A DNA stretch of 64,000 bases from Candidatus Moraniibacteriota bacterium (GCA_016699425.1 CP064975.1:1056942-1120941), one strand, 5' to 3'. Positions 5,643-54,288 are shown, counted from the stretch's first letter. Translations and numbers: made by a program. Notes: generated by a model from the sequence alone, not told the origin.

Positions 5643-5715
5643 TGGGACTGGATGGATTCGAACCATCGACCAAGCGGTTATGAGCCGCCTGCTCTAACCG
5701 CTGAGCTACAGTCCC
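5643..5715 (-). tRNA. tRNA-Met (anticodon CAT), elongator type; could instead be tRNA-Ile2
   Basis: GGGACTG-TA-GCTCAGCGGTTAGAGC; anticodon loop CTCATAA; T-arm GATGGTTCGAATCCATC; acceptor CAGTCCC-A. The anticodon stem lacks the three G-C pairs of an initiator tRNA. Confidence 0.8.
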
Positions 5716-5741
5716 AGGCGGGAGAATGGGATGAAACCCGG

Positions 5742-5813
5742 TGCCGGGGGGCAGAATTGAACTGCCGACGCAAGGATTTTCAGTCCTTCGCTCTACCACT
5801 GAGCTACCCCGGC
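5742..5813 (-). tRNA. tRNA-Phe (anticodon GAA)
   Basis: GCCGGGG-TA-GCTCAGTGGTAGAGC; anticodon loop CTGAAAA; T-arm GGCAGTTCAATTCTGCC; acceptor CCCCGGC-A. Confidence 0.85.
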
Positions 5814-5882
5814 GAAACATAACTATTATCCCGGAACTACCGAAAAAAGCAATCTTTTTTGCTCTGACTGCCGGCTTTCCGG

Positions 5883-5952
5883 TGGTGGGCAGTAGAGGAC
5901 ACTCGAACCTGTGACCCCCTCGGCTCGCCACGTACCAAAATGACTTGCCTGT
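5883..5952 (-). pseudogene. tRNA-like 3' fragment (degenerate T-arm, acceptor 3' strand ACTGCCC-A-CCA)
   Basis: Reverse complement ends ...ACAGG-TTCGAGTGT-CCTCT-ACTGCCC-A-CCA. There is no anticodon arm. It shares a TTTGGTACG-GGCG-GAGCC block with the 5' fragment at 6044-6114. Confidence 0.5.
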
Positions 5953-6025
5953 GGACGATGCTGGACTCGAACCAGCGGCCCTCTCGGTGTAAACGAGATG
6001 CTCTAACCAACTGAGCTAATCGTCC
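5953..6025 (-). tRNA. tRNA-Val (anticodon TAC)
   Basis: GGACGAT-TA-GCTCAGTTGGTTAGAGC; anticodon stem-loop TCTCG-TTTACAC-CGAGA; T-arm GCTGGTTCGAGTCCAGC; acceptor ATCGTCC-A. Confidence 0.85.
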
Positions 6026-6043
6026 GATTTTAGTACGGGGTGA

Positions 6044-6114
6044 ATAAGCGAGGGCTCCCCGCCCGTACCAAACGGTACGTTCGGGCGGGTAACCAACTGA
6101 GCTAACTGCCCGTC
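6044..6114 (-). pseudogene. tRNA-like 5' fragment (GGGCAGT-TA-GCTC-AGTTGGTTA) with a 32-nt hairpin inserted in the D-loop and no anticodon arm
   Basis: Acceptor 5' strand GGGCAGT is complementary to the ACTGCCC of the 3' fragment at 5883-5952. The inserted hairpin is CCCGCCCGAACGTACC-GTTT-GGTACGGGCGGG. Confidence 0.5.
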
Positions 6115-6180
6115 TCACTATCGTACCGAGGGTCTTCCAAAAAAGAAAGCTGGTCAACCAAGTACCAGCCTTCTTCCATT

Positions 6181-6250
6181 GTGCCCAAGAGAGGACTCGG
6201 TCACGAATAATTTCCAAGGAAATTTTCTCGACCCCACCTCGCGGTCTGCT
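6181..6250 (-). pseudogene. duplicated tRNA-Leu 3' end (19 nt, 6181-6199) followed by a hairpin-bearing insert
   Basis: GTGCCCAAGAGAGGACTCG is identical to 6337-6355 (the 3' end of the intact tRNA-Leu). The adjoining sequence has an AATTTCC/GGAAATT hairpin where the T-loop would be. Confidence 0.6.
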
Positions 6251-6337
6251 TTTGCAGACATCGCTCCGGTTTTCTCCTCCTCACACAAGCCAAGCAGTTG
6301 GCTTGTTCCTTGTTCTCAAACTCACTCCGTTCCTTTG

Positions 6338-6421
6338 TGCCCAAGAGAGGACTCGAACCTCCAATCCCTTGCGGGAACTAGCACCTCAAGCTAGCGCGTA
6401 TACCAATTCCGCCACCTGGGC
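6338..6421 (-). tRNA. tRNA-Leu (anticodon GAG), long variable arm
   Basis: GCCCAGG-TG-GCGG-AATTGGTAT-ACGC; anticodon stem-loop CTAGC-TTGAGGT-GCTAG; variable arm TTCCCGCAAGGGAT; T-arm TGGAGGTTCGAGTCCTCT; acceptor CTTGGGC-A. Confidence 0.85.
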
Positions 6422-24150: not shown

Positions 24151-24234
24151 AGGATAGAAAAAATATGTGTAGTCCAATTTTATTTTAAACAAGGGAAAAA
24201 GTCAACCTGGCTTATCCATACACGTTAGTAACCT

Positions 24235-24345
24235 AGGCCCTTGGAAATTCATTGGAAAAGTCGTGGACTTCTTTTATCCGGATTGATTATTCACAGCTTC
24301 TCCACAATTTATGCACGTTCGACCATCGATCGTGAACCTCCGGCA
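24235..24345. promoter_or_regulatory. DnaA-box cluster upstream of dnaA (oriC / dnaA promoter region)
   Basis: CTTATCCATAC, TTATCCGGA, TTATTCACA and TTCTCCACA are 0-1 mismatch matches to TTATCCACA. Confidence 0.6.
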
Positions 24346-24363
24346 TGATATAATCCGGTTTAC

Positions 24364-25809
24364 TTGCAACCCACCACCATGACAAATGAGGATCTTTGGA
24401 AAGCTGCTCTAGGACAGATTGAACTTTCCCTTTCAAAAGCCAATTTTATTACCTGGTTTAAAAATACGTCTATTCTTTCGATGGAAAATGGGCGCGTTGT
24501 GATTGGCGTTCCGAATGGATTTGCAAAAGAGTGGCTTGAAAATAAGTATAATCTATACATCATAAAGGCTCTGAAAAGCCTCGCTCCGGAAATCCAGGAT
24601 ATAAAGTGCTCCATTGCACCCAATAGCCATCGAAAAAATGGACCAGAAACCTTTGTTAAGTCGATGGATGGAGCACGCCCCTCTTCCATTGTTCAGCCGG
24701 AGAGCCCGCTCCCAAGCGGCTTTTCGAGAAAAAGAATCGCAGAAAAACCCGTATTGACCGCACCAAGCGGAGAAATCTTCCGCAGCAACCTTAACACTCG
24801 TTACACATTCGAGAATTTCATTGTCGCAGAGAATAATGAGTTGGCTCGAGCGGCCTGCTTTGCTATTTCTCAAAACTTGGGACACTTGTATAACCCACTC
24901 TTCATCTACGGAGGGGTCGGCCTAGGGAAAACCCATCTTCTCCAAGCCCTAGGGAATGAAATCGCCGCTAAACAACCGGAAAAAAGAGTGAAATACATCA
25001 CTTCGGAACGCTTTACGAGCGAGCTGGTCGAATCCATCAAGAATCAGACGGTCGATCAGTTCAAAGCCGCCTATGAACACATCGACCTTCTCATCATCGA
25101 CGATGTCCAATTCCTGTCTGGCCGAGAGAAAACCCAGAGTGAATTCTTCCACATTTTCAATGCCCTGTATCAGCTCAATAAGCAAATAGTCATTTCCAGC
25201 GACCGGACACCGAAGGCAATACCCACCCTTGAGGAGCGTCTCCGTTCCCGGTTCGAAGGCGGAATGATTGCCGATATCAGCCGACCGAGCCTCGAGACAC
25301 GTGCGGCCATCTTGGAAACAAAGGCTCAAGAGAAGGGTGTTATCATCGATTCCGCCTCAATCCACTTCATCGCAGAGCACGTGAAGGAAAATGTCCGAGA
25401 ACTCGAGGGTGCCCTCGCTCGCGTGAGTGCCTACAGTGAATTCCAAAAAGTCCCGATTGGTCTTTCTTTGGTTCAAAAAGCACTTTCAGATATGCTCGTC
25501 CAAACGAAAAAATCAGTTAAATTGGATGATATTGTTAAAATAGTGAGTGATTTTTATGGTGTACCTGTCGAAGAAATGGTGAAAAAGGGACGGAAGAAGG
25601 AAGTGGCTCACCCACGGCAAGTCGCTATGTATCTCCTTCGCACTGAACTCGATACGCCTTTTTCCACAATCGGGGACTTCTTCGGCGGGCGGGATCATAC
25701 TACTGTTCTCCATGCTGTAGACAAAATCACAAAAAATCGTGAATCGACGCTCCGGATACGAGAAGAGATTGCTTCTTTAAAAGAAAAACTTCAGGTCGCG
25801 CCTGTATAA
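24364..25809 (+). CDS. dnaA: chromosomal replication initiator DnaA
   Basis: Walker A GVGLGKTHLL, the AAA+ core, and a C-terminal DNA-binding domain (VAMYLLRTELDTPFSTIGDFFGGRDHTTVLHA). Confidence 0.95.
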   Translation: MQPTTMTNEDLWKAALGQIELSLSKANFITWFKNTSILSMENGRVVIGVPNGFAKEWLENKYNLYIIKALKSLAPEIQDIKCSIAPNSHRKNGPETFVKSMDGARPSSIVQPESPLPSGFSRKRIAEKPVLTAPSGEIFRSNLNTRYTFENFIVAENNELARAACFAISQNLGHLYNPLFIYGGVGLGKTHLLQALGNEIAAKQPEKRVKYITSERFTSELVESIKNQTVDQFKAAYEHIDLLIIDDVQFLSGREKTQSEFFHIFNALYQLNKQIVISSDRTPKAIPTLEERLRSRFEGGMIADISRPSLETRAAILETKAQEKGVIIDSASIHFIAEHVKENVRELEGALARVSAYSEFQKVPIGLSLVQKALSDMLVQTKKSVKLDDIVKIVSDFYGVPVEEMVKKGRKKEVAHPRQVAMYLLRTELDTPFSTIGDFFGGRDHTTVLHAVDKITKNRESTLRIREEIASLKEKLQVAPV

Positions 25810-26022: not shown

Positions 26023-27153
26023 ATGAAACTCAGCTGCACTCAAGAAAATCTCCGTGTCGCTCTCTCTTCCCTCGAACGTGTTGTTGGGAAACAAAGTACC
26101 TTGCCGATACTCAGTAATATCCTTTTGGAAACAGAGAGGGGGCAACTACGGCTTTCAGCGACCAATCTAGAAATTGGAGTTATTACTTCGATTGGAGCAA
26201 AGATTGAAGCAGAAGGGAAGATTACACTCCCAGCAAAATTACTAATAAATTTCATCCAGAATCTCGCTTTAGACCAAGTGGTGAGTATTGAGCAGATTGG
26301 GACGCAGGTTGTGCTGGAAAGTGGAAATTATACCGTTAAAATCAATGGTTTAGACGGGAAGGACTTTCCGATTATCCCAGAGCGGACAGAAGGAAGAATT
26401 TTTTCAATCGAGGCAGATGCTTTACGTCAGGGTCTTCAAAAGACGCTGTTCTGTGTTTCTTTAAATGAAAGTCGGGCAGAACTTACTGGGGTTCTTTTAG
26501 GATTTAGGGATGGGGTGTTGATTCTTACCGCAACCGATAGTTTTCGATTGGCTGAATGGCGGATGAAGGAAAAAATCGAGGGTGATATCAACTCCCTCGA
26601 ATCGAGCCAAGCATCAGTCATTATCCCGGCCTATACGCTTCAAGAAGTGCTTCGGGTCATGTCTCAGAATGCCGGTCGTGTGAGTGTGGCACTCGAGGAG
26701 AATCAGATATTTTTTGAAATCGGGAGTACTCGGATTGTTTCCCGTCTCATTAATGGGAAGTTTCCCGAATATCAAGCCATTATTCCAAAACAATTTTCAA
26801 CTGAGATTGTTCTTCAGCAGGATGAATTCCAGCGGGCATTGAAGATCGCCACATCCTTTTCAGCATACAGTTCTGGGGAGGTTGTATTTCGGTTGAATCC
26901 TGAGGAAAGTAGGCTCGAAATCCAATCCCAATCCCAGGGTATTGGTGAACAAGTTGCTAAGATCCCGTATGAAGGCGAGCTTTTGGAGCCACTACAAATC
27001 GTCTTCAATCCGCGCTATATTCTCGAAGGAGCGTCCATCCTTACGGGAAGCCAGATACGGATCGCTTTGAATTCTTCCTCGACGCCCGTCCGAATCTCTT
27101 CGGATATCGAACAGGAGGGGTATATTTACATCGTCATGCCGATCAGGAAATGA
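26023..27153 (+). CDS. dnaN: DNA polymerase III beta sliding clamp
   Basis: Three-domain clamp pattern. Position after dnaA. Confidence 0.9.
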   Translation: MKLSCTQENLRVALSSLERVVGKQSTLPILSNILLETERGQLRLSATNLEIGVITSIGAKIEAEGKITLPAKLLINFIQNLALDQVVSIEQIGTQVVLESGNYTVKINGLDGKDFPIIPERTEGRIFSIEADALRQGLQKTLFCVSLNESRAELTGVLLGFRDGVLILTATDSFRLAEWRMKEKIEGDINSLESSQASVIIPAYTLQEVLRVMSQNAGRVSVALEENQIFFEIGSTRIVSRLINGKFPEYQAIIPKQFSTEIVLQQDEFQRALKIATSFSAYSSGEVVFRLNPEESRLEIQSQSQGIGEQVAKIPYEGELLEPLQIVFNPRYILEGASILTGSQIRIALNSSSTPVRISSDIEQEGYIYIVMPIRK

Positions 27154-27727: not shown

Positions 27728-30319
27728 TTAGTAGGCGACCGAAACAGACCCGTCCGCGCTTGTCGTATTGCCATTCTTGTCCTCGAGCGTGACTTTAACG
27801 TCGATGGTCGAGTTATTCTGGCTGGCGGGGATGGAATAGGTTATTGAATAAGGCTTTTCGCTCCGTTCGCCAATGGTGTCCCCTTCGACGGAGAAGGTGA
27901 GTTTGGAAACCCCATAGGGAGCATTTACCCCCGCGCTGATCGTGAGTGCGCTCGAGTTGGTCGAGCTCGGAAGGCTGAGACTGACGGAGGGTTGGTATTT
28001 TTTGAAGTCATCCGCGCTACAATCTTTCTCTGGCGGCTCTTCGGCGATGACGCCCTTCTGCTTCTTGTACCATTCCTTCACTGCCTTTTCCCAATTCTTG
28101 TACTGACTATCTTTCTCTGGCTTATCCGGCTGGTCACCACGGGGGTCATCACGCTTCACATAATGGAGGATGTCGTGTGGTTCAACAAAATCCTTTTTCT
28201 CTGATTTGCCGTCCGGACAGTATTTATTAGCAATGCAATACTTATTATCTTCACCCGGTATCTCACAGACCTTCAAATCCTTCTTGTCTTCAAGTTCGCC
28301 CCCGAGCATCGGTTTATCGATAGATTCTTTTTCGTATTTCGGGAAGCGTTCAGTCGCGTAGTTGGTCAGCGTTTGGTCCAAAAAGGCTCGCCAAATCGGC
28401 GCGGCGACATTCACCCCATCCGCTCCAGCAACCATCGGGCTGTTGTTATTATTCCCGGCCCAGACGCCAACTGCGAGCGAGGGGGTGAAACCAATCGTCC
28501 AGCCATCGCGGAATTCATTCGTCGTGCCGGTCTTGGCTGCGACGTCGCGCTGGTCAAAGCGAAGCGGGCTGTTTTCGCCGAAAACGGGTGCGCGGTAGTC
28601 ATTGGTGGACATGATATGTTCGAGCATGGTCACGTATTTCTCATCCACGACTCGCTCACCGGGGCCACCTTGAAATTCTTCCAAGACCGTCCCCTTGGCA
28701 TCTTCAATCCTCAAGATGACTGCCAACGGATGCTTCACTCCACCCGTAGCGAGCGTTGAGAACGCGTGGACATGATCGAGAAGCCGGACTTCACCACCAC
28801 CCAAGACAAGTGAGAGGCCGAGTCGATCAGGATTGTCGAGTCCCTGGATGCCGAGACGCTTCGCGGTGTCGATGGCAGTATTCACCCCCGCGAGGTAGAG
28901 TGTCTTCACGGCGGGGATATTCAGCGACTGAGCGAGGGACTGGGCCATAGACAACGGCCCGTGAAATTTTCCGTCGTAGTTCTGAGGCTTGTAGCTTTTG
29001 CCATCATCCGTGTCGAAATCCGTCTCGACATCGTATAGGAGTGTCTCGGGGATGTATCCTTTAGTGAAGGCGGTCAGATAGACATATGGCTTGAATGAAG
29101 ATCCTGGCTGACGGGGAGCGGTTGTCACATTGAAGTTCGCCTCAAAGAGACAGGTTTTCCCAGCGATACAGTTGGCAGGCTCGGATGCCCCAAAGTAATC
29201 CTTGGAACCAACCATAGAGAGGAGCTGGCCGGTCTTGGGGTCGATAGCGACGAGGGCGGCATTGGCGGCTTTCCAACGCTTATTTTTTTCCGCTCCCGAG
29301 CGGACAGCCTCTTCAGCAATCATTTGCTTGTCCCAGTCGAGGGTAGTCGTGACTCGATATCCACCTTCTTCGACCGCCCGGTCGCCATACTTCTCTTGGA
29401 GGTAGTCCTTGATATACATGACAAAGTGCGGCGCTGCGATGATATCTTTTTGGGGAGCTATCTTCCCGAGTGTGTCAGCATTGATCGCCTCTTCAGCCTG
29501 CTCAGCCGTGATATAGCCGAGATTAGCCATTTGCTGGAGTGCATACGTCTGTCGGCCCGAGAGGGCTTCGGTGTGAGACCCATAGGGTGAATAATACGTG
29601 GTCGCCTGGGGGAGCGCCGCGAGAAGCGCTGCTTCGTCGAGGCCGAGCTCGCTAGCGGGCTTGCCGAAGAATGTTTCCGCAGCCGCTTCGATCCCGTAAG
29701 CATTTGATCCGTAGGGGATTTCATTGAGGTACATTTCGAGAATTTCATCCTTTGAGTACTTGGTCTCGAGTTCGAGTGCGAGGATGACCTCCTTCACCTT
29801 TCGCGACAAAGCCTTCTCATTCGAGAGAAGTGTGTTCTTCACGAGCTGCTGAGTGATCGTGGATCCGCCCTGGGACTTGTCGAGGGTGATAATGTCTTTC
29901 AAGATCGCTCGGGCGATAGATGAGAGCTTGATACCGTAGTGATGGTAGAAGTCTTGGTCTTCGAGCGAAATGGTCGCGTACTTCACGACGTCGGGCATAT
30001 CCGAAAAGGGGATAACCGTGCGTTTCTCTTCCCCGTGGACTTCATAGAGGAGGTGGGTGCCGGATCGGTCGTAAATCTTGGTCGATTCAGCGACGAAGCG
30101 ATCACGGACATTGCCGGGGCTCGGCAGGTCTTTGGCGATGTAGAGAAAGAGTCCGACGATAGCTACAAACCCGACCCCGCTGGCGATGGCCACAGCGAGC
30201 CAGATTTTCTTCCAGGGCCAGGGTGTTTTGGGACTCGGATTCATACCGACAATTTCAATCGCCGGTCGGCGACGGAAACTGGGCCGTGGAAAATTGAATT
30301 TATGGCTGAAATAAAGCAT
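27728..30319 (-). CDS. class A penicillin-binding protein (transglycosylase + transpeptidase) with C-terminal Ig-like extension
   Basis: N-terminal TM anchor. GT51 motifs (ISLEDQDFYHHYG, GGSTITQQLVKN). Transpeptidase SxxK/SxN/KTG-like motifs. Confidence 0.9.
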   Translation of the reverse strand: MLYFSHKFNFPRPSFRRRPAIEIVGMNPSPKTPWPWKKIWLAVAIASGVGFVAIVGLFLYIAKDLPSPGNVRDRFVAESTKIYDRSGTHLLYEVHGEEKRTVIPFSDMPDVVKYATISLEDQDFYHHYGIKLSSIARAILKDIITLDKSQGGSTITQQLVKNTLLSNEKALSRKVKEVILALELETKYSKDEILEMYLNEIPYGSNAYGIEAAAETFFGKPASELGLDEAALLAALPQATTYYSPYGSHTEALSGRQTYALQQMANLGYITAEQAEEAINADTLGKIAPQKDIIAAPHFVMYIKDYLQEKYGDRAVEEGGYRVTTTLDWDKQMIAEEAVRSGAEKNKRWKAANAALVAIDPKTGQLLSMVGSKDYFGASEPANCIAGKTCLFEANFNVTTAPRQPGSSFKPYVYLTAFTKGYIPETLLYDVETDFDTDDGKSYKPQNYDGKFHGPLSMAQSLAQSLNIPAVKTLYLAGVNTAIDTAKRLGIQGLDNPDRLGLSLVLGGGEVRLLDHVHAFSTLATGGVKHPLAVILRIEDAKGTVLEEFQGGPGERVVDEKYVTMLEHIMSTNDYRAPVFGENSPLRFDQRDVAAKTGTTNEFRDGWTIGFTPSLAVGVWAGNNNNSPMVAGADGVNVAAPIWRAFLDQTLTNYATERFPKYEKESIDKPMLGGELEDKKDLKVCEIPGEDNKYCIANKYCPDGKSEKKDFVEPHDILHYVKRDDPRGDQPDKPEKDSQYKNWEKAVKEWYKKQKGVIAEEPPEKDCSADDFKKYQPSVSLSLPSSTNSSALTISAGVNAPYGVSKLTFSVEGDTIGERSEKPYSITYSIPASQNNSTIDVKVTLEDKNGNTTSADGSVSVAY

Positions 30320-30383: not shown

Positions 30384-31355
30384 CTATCGGATACCAAAGT
30401 AACGTCGGAGGATCTCTTCCGCGGCATCGAAATCTGGGCGCCCAGCTGCTCCCTGGTGCAGCGAGAGGTCAGGCCCACCGTTTATCTCGATGATGACGCC
30501 ACCGGTATCCGTGAGGGGCTGGCTGATGTCTTCAGTGATGACATCAATACCGGCGATATTTAGGTGGATAGCTTTGGCGGCCGCCAGAAAAAGTTTCTTA
30601 TTGGCTGGGTGTAATCGGTCGGTTGCGTCGATCGCTGTTCCACCATGTGAGATAGGCGCAGCGAGGTAGAGTGTGACTACGCGTCCAGCTTCCGGGATAA
30701 ACTCGAGTACCAGTTCCTGCTCAGCCAGGATGTGCGTGAGCTCTGGCTTGATCGGTATGGGGTAACACCCTGAGCTGGGCTGGATGGAAGCATTATGGTG
30801 CTCGATGAGGGTCAGAATAGTATCGCGCCCATTCCCATTGAGAGTCGGGGGGATGAATTCGGCGACTGCGAGCACCTGGTCTTCAAAAACAAGCACCCGG
30901 TACTCCTTGCCTCGGATCTTCTTTTCCGCTACGACGTAGCTGAATTCCTTCTTGATGGCCTGAAAAGCTGCTTGCGCTTCGGTAAGTGACTGGAGTGAAC
31001 CATAGACACCTTTGCCGACGGTGGACCCTAGGGGCTTGAGCAGGATGTCTCCATGGTGCTTGGTATAAAATTGCTCCAAGGATGCTGGGTCTTCGATCAG
31101 GAGTTGGTTAGTCGTCGGTATATTGTTTTGGCGGAGGATTTCGTTGGTGGTTGCTTTGTCAGCCGCGATTTTCATCCCGATATAAGAGGTGGAGAGGACC
31201 GTTGCTCCAAGCGTGAAGAGCTCTTTCCTGCCATCTGTAATTCGGTAGACAAATCGGCGAGTAGAAGTGTCCCCCTTGATAGAGGCATGTCGAACCGTCG
31301 AGAGCCCGAGTCGTTTTGCGGCCTGAGCGAAGCCAAATTTTTTTGTGGTTGACAT
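30384..31355 (-). CDS. ATP-grasp ligase (RimK/cyanophycin-synthetase-like)
   Basis: ATP-grasp pattern: HGDILLKPLGSTVGKGV ... KEYRVLVFEDQVLAVAE ... GGVIIEINGGPDL. Confidence 0.65.
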   Translation of the reverse strand: MSTTKKFGFAQAAKRLGLSTVRHASIKGDTSTRRFVYRITDGRKELFTLGATVLSTSYIGMKIAADKATTNEILRQNNIPTTNQLLIEDPASLEQFYTKHHGDILLKPLGSTVGKGVYGSLQSLTEAQAAFQAIKKEFSYVVAEKKIRGKEYRVLVFEDQVLAVAEFIPPTLNGNGRDTILTLIEHHNASIQPSSGCYPIPIKPELTHILAEQELVLEFIPEAGRVVTLYLAAPISHGGTAIDATDRLHPANKKLFLAAAKAIHLNIAGIDVITEDISQPLTDTGGVIIEINGGPDLSLHQGAAGRPDFDAAEEILRRYFGIR

Positions 31356-31475
31356 AAGGATTCCCTACCAGGGGTAAAAAAACGCCATCGAGAGGCGTGG
31401 AAGAATGGACATGAGCGGGACACTGAAGGTACGATGACCCGTCATTTATACCACAGAATAGCGGTGGTGTAAAGG

Positions 31476-32864
31476 CTACTCTTTCACATTGAGCTTTTCG
31501 AGGTCAGCATCGGTAATGCCGAGCTGGTCGAGCACCCAGATGTGGCGAGGGTTAGACGGGTCATATTTTCCGACATTCCAACGTTGCATCTCGGGAATTT
31601 TTTTGTAAAGTGTTTCCCAGATGGCGATATTCCCTTCGCGATAGATAATGTCTTTAGTGAAGCAAGCCCCGGGAGTTTTGCTATCAGTACCTCGAAAAGT
31701 CCGGACCGTACGTCCCCAGGCGGTATTCGCTGCCCTCTTCTCTGATTCAGCAGAATCAATCCCTCTGGAGAGGTTTTTGATGAAGTAGTAACGGAAAAGC
31801 ATATCATAGGTTCCATGGAAATCTCGGGGATGCCCGTCAAGTCCTGATGCGAGACTGATAGCAAAGTGGCCGTCAAAGCCCGAGTAGTTGTCGGCCTCAC
31901 CTGAGAGGGCCTGTTCTCAGAGGGTTGCGATCCCTTCTTCACCACCTTCGTAGCGATCAAGTCCCAGTCCGAGGAGTTTGAGCTTGGTACGTTCGCCATT
32001 GAGTCGCCTCGCGGTGTGGGTTCCGATCTCATGTGCGATCAGTTCCCTGAGCTCCTTAGTCGTCATGTTTCGTCCGGGTGGTACCTGGACCACTTTTTTC
32101 TCCTGGTTTACACTAATTCCAGTTCGTTTCGGATCAATGACGGCAATCCATCCTTCGGCTGATAGGGACTCAAGGGCCGACCCAAAAGCTGCGCGTATCT
32201 CTTCGTCGGATAATTTCTCAGGAACATCAGGGATGTTTAGGATATTTCCAAGGTCATGCTCGGTCTGACTCTTTACAACCGGTAGAATCGATTTATCCGG
32301 CCCATCAATCGTTGAGACATCGTTTGCTTCCGGGAGATCATCGAGCAGGCTGGAGACCGCCTGTTGGACTAGAGAGTCTCTGTTCTGAGTGGCGATATCC
32401 CCGAGCTCCCTGCGGACTTGTTGCAGGGTATAATTGAAAACTTCCATCGAAGGCTTGCCGTAGATAAATTCTGAGTAACGTCGGAACCTCCGCATATCGC
32501 CGACCACTGCTGCAAGAAGCAATCAATTCTCAGCGATCTTCTCATTCAGTCGCCAGCGATAAACGTTTTTTACTACCTCGTTCTTTTCACTCGAGAGGAT
32601 TTTTTCTTTCAGGTCGAGCAACTCACTGTCTTTGGCGAGTAATGTTCCTGCTTCGAGCCGGGGATAGTCTAGGTCAGGATTCTCTTTTTCTCCAGAGAGG
32701 AATGATTCTTTTTCCTTGGCGCGCGCAGCACTATCGCCATCAGGGTATTCGTATGCTTGGAAAGCTCCAATTTCTTCGAAACGGGAATACCACATCTTAT
32801 CAAGCGTTGATGGCTTGGCTGCGGACTCTTTTTTTAAGTTCAACTGAGGTGGTTGTTCGAGCAT
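31476..32864 (-). pseudogene. DUF1704/QEGLA-motif-like putative metallopeptidase gene, one continuous frame interrupted by two in-frame TGA codons
   Basis: Three ORFs (32864-32523, 32522-31917, 31802-31476) are in the same frame. The first TGA is at 32523-32525 and the second at 31917-31919; no other stops occur. HEIGTH (HExxH) motif and EGIATL-TGA-EQALSGE. The start is probably MWYSRF (around 32795). Confidence 0.55.
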
Positions 32865-33516
32865 GGGAGTCTGGACTAGTGATATCAGTATAGCTCACCA
32901 GCTGAAACCCACGGACAAGTTTTCTGAAGTGAGTACTGTGGAGGATGTGCAGTTCCTGTTCGCGCTCCTCATTGTATCGGTAGCGGCAACGTATATCGTG
33001 GTAGCCAGGGTGCACGACGAGTTCGGAAACGGGTAATTTTTTCGTCTGAGCAACTCTTTCGGCAAGCACAGGAAGCCGAGACGGATGCCAAGAGATGAAA
33101 TTGTCTGGAGTTATGACACCAGATTTTTTTAAGACTACTCGGTCCTCAGTCAGGCGCGATCGGACGGGAAGGCCAAAATGTTTGGCGGCACGGATGACAT
33201 GGCCGAGATTCTTCGGTGTGAGGTGCTGATGCTGGTGACCATCGATGTAGGCGGGCAGACGATCGAAACGTTTCATGAAACGTTTAATCTGCGAAACAAT
33301 TTCTTTGTAGGTCGACTCTGATCCAAGTTCGAGATGCAGGCCGAGGGGAATCCTGAGTCTGAGGAGTTCCGACTTCCGGATATATTTCCGCTTGATCATG
33401 ACTGAGATGCCGGTAATGAGTCCGGCGTTCGCAGTTTCGAGCAGACCCTGATTGAAGCGCGGAGACATCCCGTAATCATCGGCGGTGATGATGAGTTTCG
33501 GGCGTCCCATATGCAC
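32800..33516 (-). CDS. YdjC/ChbG-family carbohydrate deacetylase-like protein
   Basis: N-terminal KLIITADDYGMS matches the YdjC signature (INADDFG). Confidence 0.65.
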   Translation of the reverse strand: MHMGRPKLIITADDYGMSPRFNQGLLETANAGLITGISVMIKRKYIRKSELLRLRIPLGLHLELGSESTYKEIVSQIKRFMKRFDRLPAYIDGHQHQHLTPKNLGHVIRAAKHFGLPVRSRLTEDRVVLKKSGVITPDNFISWHPSRLPVLAERVAQTKKLPVSELVVHPGYHDIRCRYRYNEEREQELHILHSTHFRKLVRGFQLVSYTDITSPDSHARTTTSVELKKRVRSQAINA

Positions 33517-33532
33517 TATCTCATGGAGTGGT

Positions 33533-34489
33533 TTACTCGAGCGTGAGCTTTTCTTTGAAGACCCGGAGAAGTTCTTGGTACATTTTCTCCATACTCGGCT
33601 TTTCTTCCGGAGTAAAGTAGAGGCCGGGCATCGAATTCAGTTCGACTACCCAAGGACTCCCGGTAGTGTCAAACATGATATCGATGGTGAAAATTTTCGG
33701 GTGGAAGGACTCAAAGATATCCTTCGCGTGCTCGACAATCGGCGCAACGGAGCGAGGGATTTGTCTGTGGGGGACGATGGAGAGCTGGCCGCCCTGCGCC
33801 AGATTGGCGAGGAAACTACCCTCCTTGGGCTCGCGAATATACGCATAGATAATTTTTTCGTTCACCATGACGAGACGCAGATCATGCATGCGGCTGGATA
33901 CACCTGGGACACCCCGTGATGAATCGATAAATTCTTGAAGGATATGCGTGCCGTGGAAAGAGATTCCGGAGGCATTTTTCTTCGGGAAGACTTGTACACC
34001 GATGCCGCCGCTTTCCGTCACGGGCTTGAGGACGGCTGTTGCTGTCCGGATATGCTTCAGAGCCGCTTTGAGTTCTATCGGGTTCCGCACGATGAAGTTC
34101 TTCTTGCTCCACTTCGAAAAGAGCAGGCCGACAACGAACTTATCATCGATGATACGTGTGAAATCGAGGTCATTGATGAATGTATAGTGCTGAGCAATGA
34201 GGTCCTTCTTGTGATACACCTCGAGCCGAGCTTTCGTCTTGTCGTAAATCAGATCGGGCTTGATGTTTGAGACTCGCGACCACTGGCCGCCCGCCCCTTC
34301 GTAAATCCAGGCGTACTTGAAGACCTGGTTCTTGTAGTCATACCACTCATAGGAGGCTCGATACATTTGGACCCCGCTCGCTTTGCAAAGATCGTAGAAA
34401 AATTCGTAGGAGTACTGATAGTCTTTATTATCAAAAGGCCGACTTTTCCGCCAACTACTTTTCCCAAAGAGGATGAGCACTTTTTTCAT
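33533..34489 (-). CDS. ATP-grasp domain protein (YheC/D-like)
   Basis: C-terminal ATP-grasp core (LKPVTESGGIGVQVF ... WVVELNSMPGL). Confidence 0.55.
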   Translation of the reverse strand: MKKVLILFGKSSWRKSRPFDNKDYQYSYEFFYDLCKASGVQMYRASYEWYDYKNQVFKYAWIYEGAGGQWSRVSNIKPDLIYDKTKARLEVYHKKDLIAQHYTFINDLDFTRIIDDKFVVGLLFSKWSKKNFIVRNPIELKAALKHIRTATAVLKPVTESGGIGVQVFPKKNASGISFHGTHILQEFIDSSRGVPGVSSRMHDLRLVMVNEKIIYAYIREPKEGSFLANLAQGGQLSIVPHRQIPRSVAPIVEHAKDIFESFHPKIFTIDIMFDTTGSPWVVELNSMPGLYFTPEEKPSMEKMYQELLRVFKEKLTLE

Positions 34490-34540
34490 ACAGGTACCCT
34501 AAGGATTATGTTTGAATATTGCAGTTGAAAGTTCGCATCG

Positions 34541-35947
34541 CTATTTGGTGACATCCACCAAGAACTTCCCCAGATTCCTCCGGCCGATGATTGCCCGGTA
34601 CTGGAGAGCGGTCCGATCGACCACACTCGGACGCGCCTCGATCTCCTCTTTATCGATGATGAGCTTGAGCGGTATCTTGGGGCGCACACTCATGCCGTTT
34701 GAAGCATAGATGCAGAGGATGTCGACGAGATCAGGGTGTTTGCCGATATGTTCGCCTCGAAGTTTTTCCTCGAACGCCCGTGCCTCGTCGCGATCGTCAA
34801 ACTGAGGGATTGGAATGGTGTCGAAATATGCGAGCACATCACTATATCCGAGTTCCTCAGCAAGCGTGCGGTCGATGGCCGAGGAGTCGGCGCCGGTGTC
34901 GATCTTCGCTTCGACCTCGATTTCTTTCCCATCCTTGCCAATAAGTTTCACTTTTTCAACCGAGCCGATGACACGTTTGCCGGAGAGGCCCTCGATGTTC
35001 TCTTCGATCTCACCGCCAAAGAGATTCATGCCGACGCGGACGCCGTGGTCGACACTCTTGATCTTTACACCCTTCACTCGCTCGAGCCGTTCCTTCAGCC
35101 CTGCCATGTTGGCGAGCTGGATGGAGAGTCCGGGCCGGGCATTCAGCTCGAGGATCACTGGCCCTGCGTCGCGATCGATGGCGACATCCGCCCCGAGGAA
35201 ACCGAGACCAGAAATCTCTTGGGCTTTGACTGCCATGGTGAGGATGTCTTTCCAGCGCGGGATCTTGAGTCCAGAGAGCAGGAGCCGTGTCTCGGGGACA
35301 TACTCGATAAGCCGCCCCTTGCCGACGATTGCACTCGTGGTCGTACCATTGGCCATGTCGACACCGACGCCAATCGCACCCAGTTGTAGGTTCGCTTTGC
35401 CGCCGGAGTCTTTGGTTGGCAGGCGGAGCATGGCCATAACGGGAACACGGTTGAAGACAATGATGCGGATGTCGGGGATGCCCTTCCAGGTGTACGGTTT
35501 GAAGAGTTTCAGGAGTTTCAATCGCTCCTCGAAGAAGGCAATATCGGGCTTATTGGAAAGTGAGAAGGTCCCGTCGAGGATGTTCTCGATATGGCTTTTC
35601 AAGTCGGCGATCGTGATGACGCTCCCATCGGCCTTCACCCAGGCGTCAATGCGGCCTTTTTTCCGTGCGTAGACGACGATGATGCCTTCGCCACCGAACC
35701 CACGATTGGGCTTTAGTGCAAAGCTGTCAGGGAGCATCTGCCAATCGAAGCGCTCGAGCTCGCTCGGCGAGCTAATCTTCGCGATGAGTTTCGAGACGGG
35801 GAGACCGTTTTTCTTCAGGGCCACTTTGCACTTCAATTTCTGATCAGCCAAACGGCGTCCGCGGGCGTGATTGTAGGGTCGGACATAATCCAAATTGCGG
35901 GCGTTCATCCCGAGGAGTGTGCGGCTGTGCGCGTACCAAGAAAGCAT
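34541..35947 (-). CDS. alpha-L-glutamate-ligase-related (RimK-like) ATP-grasp protein fused to a C-terminal retropepsin-like aspartic protease
   Basis: N-terminal LLGMNARNLDYVRPYN and the ATP-grasp core (PNRGFGGEGIIVV ... ILELNARPGLS). C-terminal KIDTGADSSAID has the DTG aspartyl-protease motif (DUF785-like). Confidence 0.7.
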   Translation of the reverse strand: MLSWYAHSRTLLGMNARNLDYVRPYNHARGRRLADQKLKCKVALKKNGLPVSKLIAKISSPSELERFDWQMLPDSFALKPNRGFGGEGIIVVYARKKGRIDAWVKADGSVITIADLKSHIENILDGTFSLSNKPDIAFFEERLKLLKLFKPYTWKGIPDIRIIVFNRVPVMAMLRLPTKDSGGKANLQLGAIGVGVDMANGTTTSAIVGKGRLIEYVPETRLLLSGLKIPRWKDILTMAVKAQEISGLGFLGADVAIDRDAGPVILELNARPGLSIQLANMAGLKERLERVKGVKIKSVDHGVRVGMNLFGGEIEENIEGLSGKRVIGSVEKVKLIGKDGKEIEVEAKIDTGADSSAIDRTLAEELGYSDVLAYFDTIPIPQFDDRDEARAFEEKLRGEHIGKHPDLVDILCIYASNGMSVRPKIPLKLIIDKEEIEARPSVVDRTALQYRAIIGRRNLGKFLVDVTK

Positions 35948-35959
35948 AGGAGGGAAGGA

Positions 35960-36700
35960 CTACGACTCTTGCTTCAGGATATGCCGGAAGCGGAAGAGCT
36001 CCACCAGTCGCAGCCCTGACCATTTCCCCAAGCCGATGTTGATGAGGAAGGTCAGAGCAATCGCCCACGGATACTGGAGGAAGAAATCCCGGAGTGCCGG
36101 CCAGCCGATGACGAAGTAACCAACAATGGAGATGACGAGTGTTTCCCCAGCGAGAAAGAGCGCTATCTTCGTTCCTTGTTCGATCTGGGTTGCGATGAAT
36201 TTTTCAGCCAGTGTGATGAGGATGAGGAGTGGAAAGATGTCTACAGCCGCAATCCCAGTGCGCTGGAGGGTCGCCCCGAAAGCGAGGATACCAAGGACGG
36301 TGAGCGAGATGATAGAGAGGGTGATGGCGACCCGCGGCAGGTAGAGGAGACGGAAGGAACGCAAGATGTAGCGTGCGAGCATCCCCATGCCGATGACCGC
36401 AAAGAAAATAGCGACGCCGTACTTCAGGCCCTTTTCCCCGAAGGCGAGAAAGGCGAAGGTGATGATGGATGGCGTATAGATGCCGAAGGCCTTGATGCCG
36501 ACGATTTGCCGGAAAAAGGCCACCAGGGTCGCGATGACCGGGAGCATGAGGAGGAGGTACACCGTTTCGATGGGCACTCCGGCTTCGACGAAATAGTTGA
36601 TGATCGGATGATAGTTCATAGCTGTATTATACTCTTCGTTTCGCGAATGACGCATGATGGATGTGGCACAGCGCAATGGCGAGCGCGTCCGCGACATCAT
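35960..36700 (-). CDS. 7-TM membrane protein of the 7TM-inactive-transglutaminase-associated type
   Basis: Seven hydrophobic helices. Position next to the RimK-related ligase matches the known three-gene cassette. The start is probably internal (MNYHPIINYF). Confidence 0.5.
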   Translation of the reverse strand: MMSRTRSPLRCATSIMRHSRNEEYNTAMNYHPIINYFVEAGVPIETVYLLLMLPVIATLVAFFRQIVGIKAFGIYTPSIITFAFLAFGEKGLKYGVAIFFAVIGMGMLARYILRSFRLLYLPRVAITLSIISLTVLGILAFGATLQRTGIAAVDIFPLLILITLAEKFIATQIEQGTKIALFLAGETLVISIVGYFVIGWPALRDFFLQYPWAIALTFLINIGLGKWSGLRLVELFRFRHILKQES

Positions 36701-37115
36701 CGGGCTTCGGGATGGCTTTCAGGTGAAGAATCTCCTTGGCCATACGTTGCACCTGCTGTTTATCCGCCTTGCCATACCCCGTGAGTGCCTGCTTCACCTG
36801 GAGCGGCGTGTAACCAGCGATAGTAAGCCCAAAATCGGCTAAAGTCAAGAGGAGTGCACCGCGTGACTGAGCGACCGAGATCGCTGTTTTCTGGTTATTG
36901 AAGAAGAAAAGTTCCTCCATCGCGGCCGTATCGGGTTGGTACTGCTTCACAATTACGGCGACATCATCGCGGATTTCCTGTAACCGCTTCTGGAGAGGTA
37001 GGTCTTTGCTCGTCGAAATATGCCCATAGGCCAGCGGCTCGGTCTTCCCCTCGATGTGCTCGAGTACAGCCCACCCTACCGTCGCCGTGCCAGGATCGAT
37101 GCCGAGGATTTTCAT
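36627..37115 (-). CDS. ruvC: Holliday junction resolvase RuvC
   Basis: MKILGIDPGTATVGWAVLE N-terminus with catalytic Asp. The ORF-track start at 37199 is an upstream extension. Confidence 0.85.
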   Translation of the reverse strand: MKILGIDPGTATVGWAVLEHIEGKTEPLAYGHISTSKDLPLQKRLQEIRDDVAVIVKQYQPDTAAMEELFFFNNQKTAISVAQSRGALLLTLADFGLTIAGYTPLQVKQALTGYGKADKQQVQRMAKEILHLKAIPKPDDVADALAIALCHIHHASFAKRRV

Positions 37116-51705: not shown

Positions 51706-52677
51706 TTAATCCGCCACAACTTCGACGAATTCGTCATCGCCGACAGAGGCCGGGGGTGGTGCCACCTTGCGTACCCGCTTCACCCCTTGGGGGGCGGGTT
51801 GTTGTGCGGTGATGGTGCGCTGGAATGCAGCGCGTACCACTACCATCTCAGGATGCACGACACGGATGCGCCGTTCCCGGATTTCCCGAAGCGGGAATTC
51901 CCGCTTCAGTGGGCCCTCGTTGAGGAGGAGTCGCCGCCGGCCTTCGTCGACGGTCTTCTCCCACCAGCCGTATTGACGGCCGGTGAAGGTGCGGCTGGTC
52001 TGGTAGGACCAGCCGGCCAGGGCCGGGTCGAGTCCGACATCGCCCGGGCCCACATAGTGGGCGTTGGACGACCCGGCGAGCTGCCAGATTCCTCCCGCGT
52101 CCTTGCGGACGATGCCTTCGGGGAGGGAAAACTTCCCCTCCCCGATATCGCGCGCGAAGAGGGCGCGCGACGTCCAGGTGACCCAGTGGTCCCCTTCGGT
52201 CCAACCGAGCCCGAGGGACTCGGCTGGGAGGAGCGTGCCTGCCGAATCAGGCAGGTCGTCGATGACGGCCTCGACCCACCGGGCCGAGACTTCCTCGCGG
52301 ACTGGCAGGGCCAGTCCGGCGAAGTAGCGGGGCGTCTGCCCCGCCAGCTCGACCTTGACCACCCAGAGGTGGTCTCCGGATAGGTGCCCATCCTCCAGAT
52401 GGAGAACAGACACCACCTCACCGCTCTCAACCGCAAATGCGGCCGATGCGGCGAAGCAGAAGTAGGCATGACGCTGGGGCACGGGTGCTCCGTCACCACG
52501 CCCATATCGACCGGACCCCGTGACGCCCCCATAGGGGAGGTGCTCGGGGGGCGCGAACGCCCGGACGGTTTCTTCACGTACTATTTGCTGGAGTTTCATC
52601 TCCAAGCTCCTCCTCACACGCAAAGCCCGGCGTGCAGAGATAATTGATATGGTGCGGGTACACCGGAACTCTATCAA
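51706..52677 (-). CDS. hypothetical Gly/Trp-rich protein (up to 323 aa; start probably the internal MKLQQIV)
   Basis: Long ORF with high GC third positions. No recognised motif. Confidence 0.45.
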   Translation of the reverse strand: MIEFRCTRTISIISARRALRVRRSLEMKLQQIVREETVRAFAPPEHLPYGGVTGSGRYGRGDGAPVPQRHAYFCFAASAAFAVESGEVVSVLHLEDGHLSGDHLWVVKVELAGQTPRYFAGLALPVREEVSARWVEAVIDDLPDSAGTLLPAESLGLGWTEGDHWVTWTSRALFARDIGEGKFSLPEGIVRKDAGGIWQLAGSSNAHYVGPGDVGLDPALAGWSYQTSRTFTGRQYGWWEKTVDEGRRRLLLNEGPLKREFPLREIRERRIRVVHPEMVVVRAAFQRTITAQQPAPQGVKRVRKVAPPPASVGDDEFVEVVAD

Positions 52678-52854
52678 CCCACACCTACTCGTGAGATCTT
52701 CTCACTTTCGCTACAGGCTGAATGAAGTCCAGCACCAAAACCAATTGGTGCTGGATGAATGAGGAAGCAAGCGACCAAGCAAGCTCCTCATCCAAAACCA
52801 TGTGTTTATTCGCGCTGATATACGCTGGTCAAACACACAAAACCGTTTAAGAAC

Positions 52855-54288
52855 TCAGAACCCGAGAGTAGCGACCTTTTGGGCCACTAACTTCAGGGTG
52901 TTTGCCACCCGGACCTCGCCCAAGTACGGGAGAAGCCGTGATGCCGGAACGAAACGGCGCGAGGTTGAAACCCCGATGCGCCGCATGAACTCCCACGTCC
53001 CCTCAGCGCAGTTACCTGCGTCTCGGGAATCCTGGAAGTACACGATGGGGCAGAACCCCACCGGCTGGAGTCGGGAGACAAACTGCTTGTTCTCCCTCTC
53101 CAACTTCTTCTGCTTCTGCCACGCATCGAGCGCGGCACCGACTGCGGCCTCACGATCTGCGAGTGACTTGTGAGTCACTGTGTCGTACCAACCTCCGGTA
53201 TGGTGATACGACCGGCCGAAGCCAGTCACCAACCACACCACCTCAACGAACTCGCGTCCGCTGGTTTCGGTGAGCCGATACCCGGCTGAAGCCGAGATAC
53301 CGTGTCGCACCGCGTTGTCGCTTGTGGGGTCGAGGTACATCTCGACCCCGTCCGTCTTGTCACGGACGAGCCGTCCCGATGCCAACAGGGCATCGCGCAG
53401 GCAAGTAAACTCGCCCGCGTTCACCCGCTCCACTGCCCAGCGGAGTACTTCTCGCGGGGCGGGTTTGAACAAGGTGAGCCCGCGCGCCGCGATGAGGACA
53501 TCGCGGCTTTTGCAGTTGTGGAAGTCCTCTCCAGAGATACCGAAGAGGACCTGCTGGACTATATTGGCCGCGGTGGCCATACCCGCCTTGCGCGGGCACA
53601 GCCGGTTGTACGGGACGCAAGACCAGCGTCCCTTGAAGTGAATACCAAACCCCCGCAGGAAGCGGTTGGTCTGGTAGGCTACCTTTCTCAGGTAGCGATC
53701 CGCTCCGCCGGGCGACGGGTGTCGCTCGACGAAGTCCCAGAGATTCACCACGTTGTGCGGGGAGTGAAACATCCCGCACTGGGTGGCTCTGATGAATTCC
53801 ACGAGCGTCGGGAATGCCGACGCCGCGCGGAGCCACCCTGCCATCCGGAGGAACTGCTCGGTCGAAGCCTCCAGACGTCGAGCCCGGTAAGCTTTCTCGC
53901 TTTCCCCCTCTTTCCACTCGACGTGGGAGGAGGAATTGTTCTGGAGATTATACGGGATGACCCGCGTGGGGCCATACTTCGGCCAGTTACGCCGGTCCCA
54001 TTCCGATTGGAACCAGTTTTCTTTCCACTCCTCGGTCAGGATGCCAACCGAGATTTCAAAGTCAATCGCCGCGCGGGCGACGCGCTTTTGAAGCCCACCG
54101 AAACTCCAGGGGCGCTTGCCCCTGAGGGCGACAGCGCCCTCGTATTTGACCTCTTCCCGCCACGAGGTGGCGGTTTGGACTTCTTCTTCGCCCCGGAGAG
54201 CGTTGAGGGAGTCTTGCTTCCTTACAAATTCCTTGGCCATGATGGCCTCCTTTTTGTGAGCGACGGTTGATGAAAGGCGGATCCGCAT
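52855..54288 (-). CDS. hypothetical protein (477 aa), Trp/Arg-rich
   Basis: Longest ORF of the GC-rich segment. Start near MAKEFVRKQ. No motif recognised with confidence. Confidence 0.5.
   Translation of the reverse strand: MRIRLSSTVAHKKEAIMAKEFVRKQDSLNALRGEEEVQTATSWREEVKYEGAVALRGKRPWSFGGLQKRVARAAIDFEISVGILTEEWKENWFQSEWDRRNWPKYGPTRVIPYNLQNNSSSHVEWKEGESEKAYRARRLEASTEQFLRMAGWLRAASAFPTLVEFIRATQCGMFHSPHNVVNLWDFVERHPSPGGADRYLRKVAYQTNRFLRGFGIHFKGRWSCVPYNRLCPRKAGMATAANIVQQVLFGISGEDFHNCKSRDVLIAARGLTLFKPAPREVLRWAVERVNAGEFTCLRDALLASGRLVRDKTDGVEMYLDPTSDNAVRHGISASAGYRLTETSGREFVEVVWLVTGFGRSYHHTGGWYDTVTHKSLADREAAVGAALDAWQKQKKLERENKQFVSRLQPVGFCPIVYFQDSRDAGNCAEGTWEFMRRIGVSTSRRFVPASRLLPYLGEVRVANTLKLVAQKVATLGF

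Follow-up and report, generated by a model that had tools for sequence, protein, structure and literature searches.

What purpose is served by a compact run of peptide ligase and peptidase genes encoded directly beside a class A penicillin-binding protein (PBP)? The run in question occupies positions 30384-36700 of a 64,000-nucleotide stretch from a Candidatus Moraniibacteriota bacterium (GCA_016699425.1 CP064975.1:1056942-1120941), the whole of which is referred to here as the window. Open reading frame (ORF) calling places six successive, co-oriented ORFs in this interval, all on the minus strand, and these ORFs together with profile searches confirm the families assigned to each in a first-pass annotation of the same DNA: a seven-transmembrane (7TM) protein, an ATP-grasp ligase fused to a retropepsin-like protease, a second ATP-grasp, a YdjC-like deacetylase, a QEGLA/DUF1704-like peptidase (MATCAP below), and a third ATP-grasp. 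On sequence and by analogy, we lean on balance toward reading the locus as the Moranbacteria (candidate phyla radiation (CPR)/Patescibacteria) version of the Rlo/Rim acidic-peptide ligase/protease system, equipped with lineage-variable accessory ligases. The component families and the proteobacterial system are already known, and the CPR form is a fused, expanded relative of it; a literature search for this system in CPR bacteria returned no publication.

The ligase–protease fusion and its membrane partner

The core of the cluster consists of the fusion protein and the 7TM protein, with the following coordinates.

34541..35947, minus strand: fusion protein of 468 aa, an RloC-type ATP-grasp with a C-terminal RimB/RloA-type retropepsin-like domain, in one uninterrupted ORF
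35069..35926, minus strand: ATP-grasp domain of the fusion, residues ~8-293 (TIGR02291, PF14397)
34544..34981, minus strand: retropepsin-like domain of the fusion, residues ~323-468 (motifs DTGAD and IIGRRN; PF05618)
35960..36619, minus strand: 7TM protein of 219 aa (PF14402, E = 1.3e-28; score 100.6 bits, cutoff 25)

The ligase and the retropepsin (DTGAD) reside in a single polypeptide, as the first-pass annotation had proposed: the ORF is continuous and both domain profiles match. The ATP-grasp portion scores 222.2 bits on PF14397 (9.7e-66, cutoff 31.4) and 280.3 bits on TIGR02291 (1.6e-83, model positions 9-291 of 317), the latter below the cutoff of 314.2. Its score on the rimK_fam model is only 35 bits, and this difference, along with 40-43% identity to proteobacterial RloC from Legionella (42.7%) and Aeromonas, leads us to regard the ligase as RloC-like rather than RimK-like. 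Residues K79 and E267-x-N269 are invariant in 42 homologs. In an AlphaFold2 (AF2) monomer model of the fusion (predicted local distance difference test score (pLDDT) 81.5), the closest PDB folds of the ATP-grasp domain are RimK (7qys/5zct) and ArgX (3vpb). The RimK and ArgX/LysX ligases all extend a C-terminal alpha-carboxylate. Structure prediction, which the earlier annotation had suggested for this protein, bears out the ligase half, Foldseek with the whole model having returned ATP-grasp matches only. A phmmer search of the PDB with the full-length fusion gave no match, a domain profile being required.

At the domain level, the protease assignment is more specific. PF05618, Asp_protease_2 and RloA3 all match residues 323-467, which contain the motif AKIDTGADSS; taken alone, the domain reaches 30 bits on PF05618 (cutoff 27), and all 16 of 16 homologs match this model (best E = 2.8e-11). 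A profile of the domain also matches the RloA crystal structures 9G58 (E = 4.1e-7) and 9G59 (2.5e-6). In the HMMER alignment to 9G58, K348, D350, R422 and R445 of the fusion correspond to K46, D48, R114 and R137 of RloA, and these four residues, as well as D350-T-G, are invariant in the 42 homologs. All four RloA residues are needed for polyglutamate cleavage, with R114 and R137 required in vivo as well as in vitro, and K46, R114 and R137 coordinate polyglutamate (PMC12239564). Judged from its sequence, the fused protease is of the endopeptidase type (RimB/RloA) and not a carboxypeptidase. It is internal to a protein that contains no hydrophobic segment, and it has no RloA-like N-terminal signal peptide. 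Within the cluster and its PBP neighbor, hydrophobic segments are found only in the 7TM protein and the PBP, and the cluster enzymes, which contain neither signal peptides nor transmembrane segments, are all predicted to be cytoplasmic. Variants of the fusion also occur: one relative (L082, 4323-4784) carries an additional stand-alone retropepsin-like ORF directly after the fusion, and in four larger fusions of 688-926 aa (P0376, P0418, P0433 and P0377) the protease domain lies at residues ~306-465.

With respect to the 7TM protein, membership in the PF14402 family stands as first annotated, whereas its start and its transglutaminase portion do not. Against the RloB model NF052267 it aligns only to positions 308-507 of 508 (77.6 bits, cutoff 900), and so equals the C-terminal 7TM half of RloB without the N-terminal inactive transglutaminase domain. 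More than 120 homolog clusters have lengths of 217-220 aa, compared with 508-512 aa for RloB in Legionella and Aeromonas. Because of these lengths, and because the longer ORF runs into the 3′ end of ruvC, the gene most likely starts at 36619 and not at 36700. The protein contains 5-6 strongly hydrophobic 19-mers, is all-helical in its AF2 model (pLDDT 80.9), and shares 27% identity with its Legionella and Aeromonas counterparts.

Selection on this core was apparent from close relatives. An exact-match look-up of the fusion protein returned 11 contigs from other samples, six of which were retrieved (L001-L006, the sister strains; one is from an NCBI Candidatus Moraniibacteriota metagenome-assembled genome) and are ~99% identical to the window. 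Relative to L001, the fusion gene carries 15 synonymous and 0 nonsynonymous codon differences, and the 7TM gene 12 and 1, respectively; the 7TM-fusion core is under strong purifying selection.

Relationship to the Rlo and Rim systems

The gene associations at issue here were reportedly first predicted by Iyer et al. 2009. The Rlo system itself was named in 2025 (Lormand et al. 2025, PMC12239564) and is found in Gammaproteobacteria that include Pseudomonas aeruginosa. In this system, RloA proteases are secreted, retropepsin-like enzymes that cut stretches of 8 or more Glu, RloB joins an inactive transglutaminase to 7 transmembrane helices, and RloC is a cytoplasmic ATP-grasp (PMC12239564). Loss of all three RloA paralogs in P. 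aeruginosa produces hypo-osmotic, antibiotic, biofilm and cell-shape defects, which are suppressed by loss of rloB or rloC (PMC12239564).

The CPR locus draws on the same three families as RloABC, namely a PF14402 7TM module, a TIGR02291/PF14397 ATP-grasp and a PF05618 retropepsin-like protease, and its protease retains both the DTG and the polyglutamate-binding K/R/R residues. It differs in several respects. Specifically, the CPR protease is joined to the C-terminus of the ligase and is predicted to be cytoplasmic, whereas RloA is separate and secreted; the periplasmic inactive transglutaminase domain of RloB (~300 aa) is missing from the 7TM protein; and the genes run 7TM then ligase–protease, in contrast to the order rloA-rloB-rloC. 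The CPR core is also trailed by 1-4 extra ligases and other enzymes, and its proteins score under the NCBIfam cutoffs for RloA, RloB and RloC. For reference, the annotated Legionella locus reads rloA-rloB-rloC, with an rloB of 508 aa and an rloC of 314 aa, and an Aeromonas record without annotation shows the same order, the 7TM query matching an ORF of 512 aa and the ligase query one of 321 aa. The first-pass description of an expanded cassette that adjoins a class A PBP is borne out relative to the three-gene proteobacterial system.

A second point of comparison is provided by RimK, which polyglutamylates ribosomal protein S6 and also makes free poly-alpha-Glu in a reaction stimulated by RimB, and by RimB itself, which associates with RimK, alters the ATPase activity of RimK and cuts stretches of 8 or more Glu (PMC11957791, PMC10092738). 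Like the CPR locus, RimK-RimB(-RimA) combines a cytoplasmic ATP-grasp ligase (for RimK, an alpha-L-glutamate ligase) with a cytoplasmic retropepsin-like endopeptidase. The CPR fusion, with an ATP-grasp fold nearest to RimK, therefore appears to be the covalent joining of a ligase–protease pair like one known to form a complex, and this architecture argues that synthesis and cleavage would share one compartment, at least in CPR. In contrast to RimK-RimB(-RimA), the CPR ligase is RloC-type and has a 7TM partner, and the locus contains no RimA, with no rpsF or acidic-tailed substrate nearby. LysX/ArgX, which join an amino acid onto the Glu at the C-terminus of the carrier LysW, are also among the nearest structures of the fusion ATP-grasp (3vpb), but identity is 16-17% and no gene for a LysW-like small acidic carrier was found in the window.

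Conservation across Moranbacteria

Conservation was surveyed in at least 80 species-level loci containing a full-length fusion (47-84% identity), which were obtained from a scan of species-representative genomes of Moranbacteria and other Parcubacteria/Patescibacteria and onto which the window proteins were mapped. Full-length homologs of the fusion form more than 120 clusters at 90% identity (65-100% identical), the named ones nearly all from Candidatus Moraniibacteriota, and they retain the domain linker and the two active sites. Judging from these homologs, the fused ligase–protease is the standard architecture in Moranbacteria and not peculiar to the window. Extra ligases are the norm as well, which calls for a change to the first-pass interpretation.

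All 78 of the 78 loci that have upstream DNA carry the 7TM gene immediately upstream of the fusion, and in 4 of these it overlaps the fusion start by 1-4 nt. With ruvC upstream in 73 of 80 loci and a PBP1A gene downstream in 62 of 80, the conserved order reads ruvC, 7TM, fusion, a variable island (0.5-5.5 kb in length), and PBP1A. The neighborhood that was first described as a six-gene unit is thus conserved with respect to its 7TM-fusion pair and the downstream PBP, but the exact six-gene order of the window is limited to same-species contigs.

The variable island was compared in a set of 63 loci, comprising the 62 of 80 species-level loci that span both fusion and PBP plus the same-species contig L003. 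ATP-grasp ORFs occur in the island of 59 of these 63 (98 ORFs in total, 1-3 per locus) and belong to at least 35 subfamilies at 45% identity. Recurring modules are G1-GT4 (GT, glycosyltransferase), G4-G5 and G0(-G7)-YdjC-MATCAP, and sporadic genes include YdjC (8 of 80 loci), GT4 (11 loci), and Mur-ligase-like, GT2 and GNAT genes (2 loci each). Island ORFs of 592-646 aa in L007 (11422-13299), L008 (11417-13321), L010, L031 and L071 are apparent tandem ATP-grasp fusions. A separate observation concerns the records themselves: L007, L009, L010, L012, L016 and many others are titled 'uncultured Bdellovibrionales', 'Micavibrio', 'Bathyarchaeia archaeon' or 'Fimivivens', and these loci show ruvC-7TM-fusion-PBP synteny and 58-84% protein identity to Moranbacteria, such that the taxonomic labels look wrong.

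A broken carboxypeptidase gene

One member of the cluster in the window does not encode an intact protein.

31476..32864, minus strand: MATCAP/DUF1704-family metallopeptidase pseudogene of 462 codons with HEIGTH and EEGIA motifs (PF08014)
32523-32525, minus strand: TGA in frame, codon 114 of the MATCAP gene (L003 has CGA, Arg)
31917-31919, minus strand: TGA in frame, codon 316 of the MATCAP gene, immediately following EEGIATL (sister strains have CGA, Arg)

This gene bears on a different account of the locus, in which an ATP-grasp ligase and a MATCAP/QEGLA-type carboxypeptidase would carry out a reversible cycle of C-terminal tailing on a protein or cell-wall substrate, like tubulin tyrosine ligase (TTL) and MATCAP (TMCP) on tubulin; the first-pass annotation had put forward such a ligase and carboxypeptidase pair. 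The resemblance is genuine at the level of families. The gene matches PF08014 at 1.8e-20 (73.7 bits, cutoff 27), as in the tubulin cycle a PF08014 metallocarboxypeptidase accompanies an ATP-grasp ligase, and the HExxH and EEG motifs are kept. Eukaryotic family members are reported to strip C-terminal Tyr and Glu from acidic tubulin tails (PMC10499314), and an intact MATCAP gene ends the ligase island in 9 other species of the survey. The family assignment of the peptidase as first annotated therefore stands, but not its QEGLA motif, which reads EEGIA, nor its status as an intact gene. HEIGTH and EEGIA are kept in 14 aligned sequences, and on TIGR02421, the proteobacterial QEGLA family, the score of 62 bits (5.6e-17) is well under the cutoff of 338.65. 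The families TIGR02291, PF14402 and TIGR02421, which had been named for the ligase, the 7TM protein and the peptidase, do all match, TIGR02291 and TIGR02421 under their curated cutoffs.

Both TGA codons fall at positions that are Arg in 13 of 13 aligned homologs (47-80% identical), and the Arg at codon 316 sits within the catalytic motif EEGIATL-R-EQ. Codon 114 is TGA in the window and in L001, L002, L004, L005 and L006, and CGA in L003, whose MATCAP gene is intact; codon 316 is CGA in 5 of the 5 sister contigs that cover the site, so its TGA is unique to the window. In L006, TGA114 is joined by a deletion of ~655 bp in the catalytic region. Relative to L001, the MATCAP frame carries 7 nonsynonymous and 9 synonymous codon differences, compared with 8 nonsynonymous and 71 synonymous for seven flanking genes combined (the PBP gene contributing 3 and 32), an excess of nonsynonymous change with p = 0.003 by Fisher's exact test. 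The stops at invariant Arg residues, the polymorphism among strains and the raised nonsynonymous/synonymous ratio indicate a gene decaying after a first nonsense hit, and as judged from its sequence the MATCAP gene of the window is unable to yield a catalytic domain.

Other explanations for the TGA codons were set aside. An alternative code (UGA as Gly or Trp, codes 25/4) is incompatible with genes of 468-1178 codons that contain no in-frame TGA and with the termination of dnaN and ydjC by TGA. A suppressor tRNA was not found in the window. Selenocysteine incorporation or other recoding is at odds with Arg in all homologs at both sites and CGA in sister strains. Assembly error was rejected for TGA114, which is present in five independent assemblies; TGA316 is seen in the window assembly only.

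Beyond this genome, MATCAP is missing from ~85% of the related loci. Species L046 retains a 34-aa remnant of the MATCAP C-terminus (6043-6144, 65% identity) between ydjC and the PBP gene, which points to independent loss of the peptidase in another species. No MATCAP/QEGLA-like gene lies within 7 kb of rloBC in Legionella or Aeromonas, two loci that are too few to generalize from; in those two cases, the QEGLA gene is not a fixed part of the proteobacterial cassette, and its inclusion in the known minimal cassette, as first annotated, was not confirmed. The comparison with the tubulin cycle is also loosened by its being drawn between a eukaryotic pathway and a bacterial locus where the peptidase is optional in the clade. 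On account of the stops, the decay and the patchy presence, MATCAP is best viewed as an optional accessory rather than core logic. The carboxypeptidase cycle is not operative in this genome, where, with the MATCAP gene broken, the intact ligase/protease pair is the fusion itself, and as an account of the locus in general we consider the tailing cycle improbable.

Accessory ligases and deacetylase

Three further genes complete the cluster.

33533..34489, minus strand: second ATP-grasp, 318 aa, distantly RimK-like, island subfamily G0 (PF08443, E = 2.3e-11)
32800..33516, minus strand: YdjC-family carbohydrate deacetylase, 236-238 aa (PF04794, E = 6.6e-32, 111.8 bits against a cutoff of 29.7)
30384..31355, minus strand: third ATP-grasp, 323 aa, a stand-alone homolog of the cyanophycin-synthetase G domain (NF010623, TIGR02068)

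The second ATP-grasp scores 44.1 bits on PF08443 (cutoff 21) and 43.4 bits on TIGR00768, and because the latter is under the cutoff of 143.4 we describe it as RimK-like in type and not as a RimK ortholog. It matches RimK in the PDB at 5e-5, and G0 orthologs (51-74% identity) occur in the islands of ~16 other species. The YdjC protein scores 78.5 bits on the chitin disaccharide deacetylase model, below the cutoff of 227. The third ATP-grasp matches cyanophycin-synthetase models at E ~1e-63 (9.4e-64), but with 212.7 bits against a cutoff of 850 on TIGR02068 and coverage of only positions 183-468 of 862, the G domain. In the PDB, it matches residues 203-462 of CphA1 (7wac) at 5.8e-39. Its alignment to CphA ~183-470 covers the domain that extends the peptide C-terminus; lacking the N-terminal primer-binding (N) and Mur-ligase-like M domains, it is not a cyanophycin synthetase. 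Across 80 other loci, the search gave no ortholog exceeding 34% identity, making this ligase species-specific among the loci surveyed.

These affinities raise the prospect that the cluster makes free cytoplasmic peptides, either short and osmolyte-like or a cyanophycin- or polyglutamate-like storage polymer, with the fused protease recycling the product. In addition to its proximity to the CphA G domain, the third ligase matches N-acetylglutaminylglutamine synthetase (1.2e-34) and GshAB models, and no acidic-tailed protein substrate is encoded nearby. A free product would have precedent in the RimB-stimulated synthesis of poly-alpha-Glu by RimK, and Rlo has been tied to osmotic tolerance (PMC12239564). 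Nonetheless, free peptides would leave the strictly conserved 7TM partner unexplained, the ligase most like CphA is truncated and species-specific, and accessory content is too variable for a housekeeping osmolyte pathway. We therefore find the free-peptide account quite improbable.

Genomic setting

On its two sides, the cluster has the following neighbors.

36627..37115, minus strand: ruvC, upstream neighbor (PF02075, 3.7e-49)
27728..30319, minus strand: class A PBP (PBP1A type), downstream neighbor (PF00912, 4.4e-61; PF00905, 1.8e-22; TIGR02074, 9.7e-149)
26023-27153, plus strand: dnaN, adjoining the PBP gene
24232-25809, plus strand: dnaA, on the PBP side of the cluster

Distances within the six-gene run range from a slight ydjC/MATCAP overlap to a 120-nt gap, and the class A PBP starts 64 nt past the third ligase gene. 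Both the glycosyltransferase 51 and the transpeptidase domain are present in this PBP (PF00912, PF00905), which scores 496.6 bits on TIGR02074, slightly below the cutoff of 508.75. Upstream of the cluster are ruvC, which is probably context and not part of the system, and a TrmB-like gene; downstream, the PBP is followed by dnaN and dnaA on the opposite strand. A minimum of the cumulative GC skew at 24-26 kb of the window, together with dnaA and dnaN, places the cluster within ~5-10 kb of the probable replication origin.

This setting is central to a further interpretation, in which the ligases directly build or modify peptidoglycan or another envelope glycan and the island is a strain-variable surface-decoration locus serving PBP1A. 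Such activity could involve stem-peptide side-chain or cross-bridge residues, as for the ATP-grasp D-Asp ligase of Enterococcus, or acylation of a deacetylated amino sugar. The island lies between core and PBP1A in 62 of 80 loci, including loci with an inverted PBP gene, its extreme modular variability resembles that of surface-antigen loci, and the islands of relatives include GT4, GT2, Mur-ligase-like, GNAT and YdjC genes. The Pfam label of PF14397 is also sugar-transfer associated, and loss of RloA in Pseudomonas causes cell-shape, beta-lactam and hypo-osmotic defects (PMC12239564). In terms of the enzymes themselves, however, all are predicted to be cytoplasmic, none matches a peptidoglycan-precursor ligase above curated cutoffs (Ddl and Mur matches being weak or absent), and the conserved protease residues fit polyGlu-like substrates rather than stem peptides. 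Synteny near oriC can moreover last without a functional link. A direct role in building the wall is therefore a possibility that we consider unlikely.

That last consideration, taken to its limit, would mean that there is no system here at all, and that unrelated genes are held together only by origin-proximal synteny in Parcubacteria. Housekeeping genes (ruvC, PBP1A, dnaN and dnaA) do flank the cluster in most loci. Yet the 7TM, RloC-type ligase and retropepsin genes are also linked in distant Proteobacteria with other flanks and interact genetically in P. aeruginosa (PMC12239564). Ligase and protease are moreover fused here, and the island consists almost wholly of amide-bond-forming or amide-bond-cleaving enzymes. 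A chance assemblage of this kind is extremely improbable.

Several other features of the window were noted. Rfam and tRNA scans gave no matches inside the cassette, and a promoter/terminator scan gave counts near the level of shuffled sequence, with the terminator count modestly above it; a weak terminator-like hairpin with a T-run is found at 31382-31398 (minus strand), within the 120 nt that separate the MATCAP pseudogene from the third ligase gene. Five tRNA genes are clustered at 5492-6421 (minus strand; Gly-GCC, Met-CAT, Phe-GAA, Val-TAC and Leu-GAG). GC content is 41-44% in the first 4 kb (1-4000), 61.8% at 52001-54000, and ~50-56% elsewhere. Divergence from sister strain L001 is mosaic, being 0.10% in the CphA-like ligase (30384-31355) and 0.20% in ruvC (36627-37115) as compared with 1.1-2.0% in the genes for the 7TM protein, the fusion, MATCAP and the PBP, a pattern suggesting that some segments recently recombined or went through a sweep.

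Proposed mechanism

If the locus is a CPR version of the Rlo/Rim system, as we favor, the ligase domain of the fusion would use ATP to add acidic residues stepwise, most likely alpha-linked Glu, either to the C-terminal carboxylate of some acceptor molecule or to a free growing chain. Retropepsins require a homodimer to form a two-Asp active site, and the fused protease domain would likewise pair with a second copy. The paired domains could then cut acidic chains, setting their length or releasing them, in parallel with RimB bound to RimK. The 7TM partner may, as a guess, link the process to the membrane through export or anchoring of the product. The accessory RimK-like and CphA-G-like ligases would probably add further residues to the peptide C-terminus, the YdjC deacetylase could expose a sugar amine for acylation, and MATCAP, where intact, would trim C-terminal residues. 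The cell envelope may be the target, a suggestion that derives from PBP1A adjacency, from related islands that encode glycosyltransferases and Mur-ligase-like proteins, and from the cell-wall phenotypes seen when Rlo genes are mutated, and that is the weakest step of the scheme.

Several considerations weigh against this reading. The amino-acid specificity of ATP-grasp ligases is not readable from sequence, and an ORF search of the window found no relevant acidic-tailed substrate or carrier. In the AF2 model of the fusion, two helices at residues ~369-405 (window ~34733-34843) align to the flap hairpins of RloA, and if these predicted helices do replace the hairpins, access of the substrate may differ. 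The model of the 7TM protein gave no significant fold match in the PDB (best E = 0.2); its top structural matches are Rnf/Nqr/Mtr membrane subunits (E >= 0.2, TM score < 0.45), and no transporter family was assigned. RloA is secreted and RloC cytoplasmic, whereas both activities would occupy one compartment in CPR, and the systems may work differently. Finally, adjacency to PBP1A and ruvC may be nothing more than inherited origin-proximal synteny.

A bolder form of the same scheme, which we regard as speculative and rather unlikely, is that the core and its hypervariable ligase island constitute an assembly line for peptides, template-independent and strain-variable, that decorates the envelope of CPR bacteria next to PBP1A. 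Its parts may comprise one to four ATP-grasp ligases that each add a defined residue, trimming peptidases, and sometimes glycosyltransferases or deacetylases, and its product may be a 'peptide O-antigen' under diversifying selection by hosts or phages.

Implications

Moranbacteria are uncultured, ultra-small CPR bacteria with very small genomes. Against this background, the 7TM-fusion pair is among the most strictly conserved non-housekeeping gene pairs near the origin and PBP1A in the group, and it is related to a system that in P. aeruginosa affects osmotic tolerance, antibiotic susceptibility, biofilm formation and cell shape. The CPR form offers a natural fusion in which an RloC-type ligase and a retropepsin would act together in one compartment, and having no transglutaminase-like domain, it defines a minimal core. 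Around that core, the interchangeable accessory ligases are now catalogued and may reveal the kind of molecule that is built, while the polymorphic nonsense mutations in MATCAP provide an instance, within a population, of the loss of an accessory trimming enzyme. If the assembly-line reading is true, ancestral Rlo-type synthesis and cleavage would act on the same cytoplasmic intermediate, and this shared-intermediate view would revise the compartment-separated model that has come from Pseudomonas.

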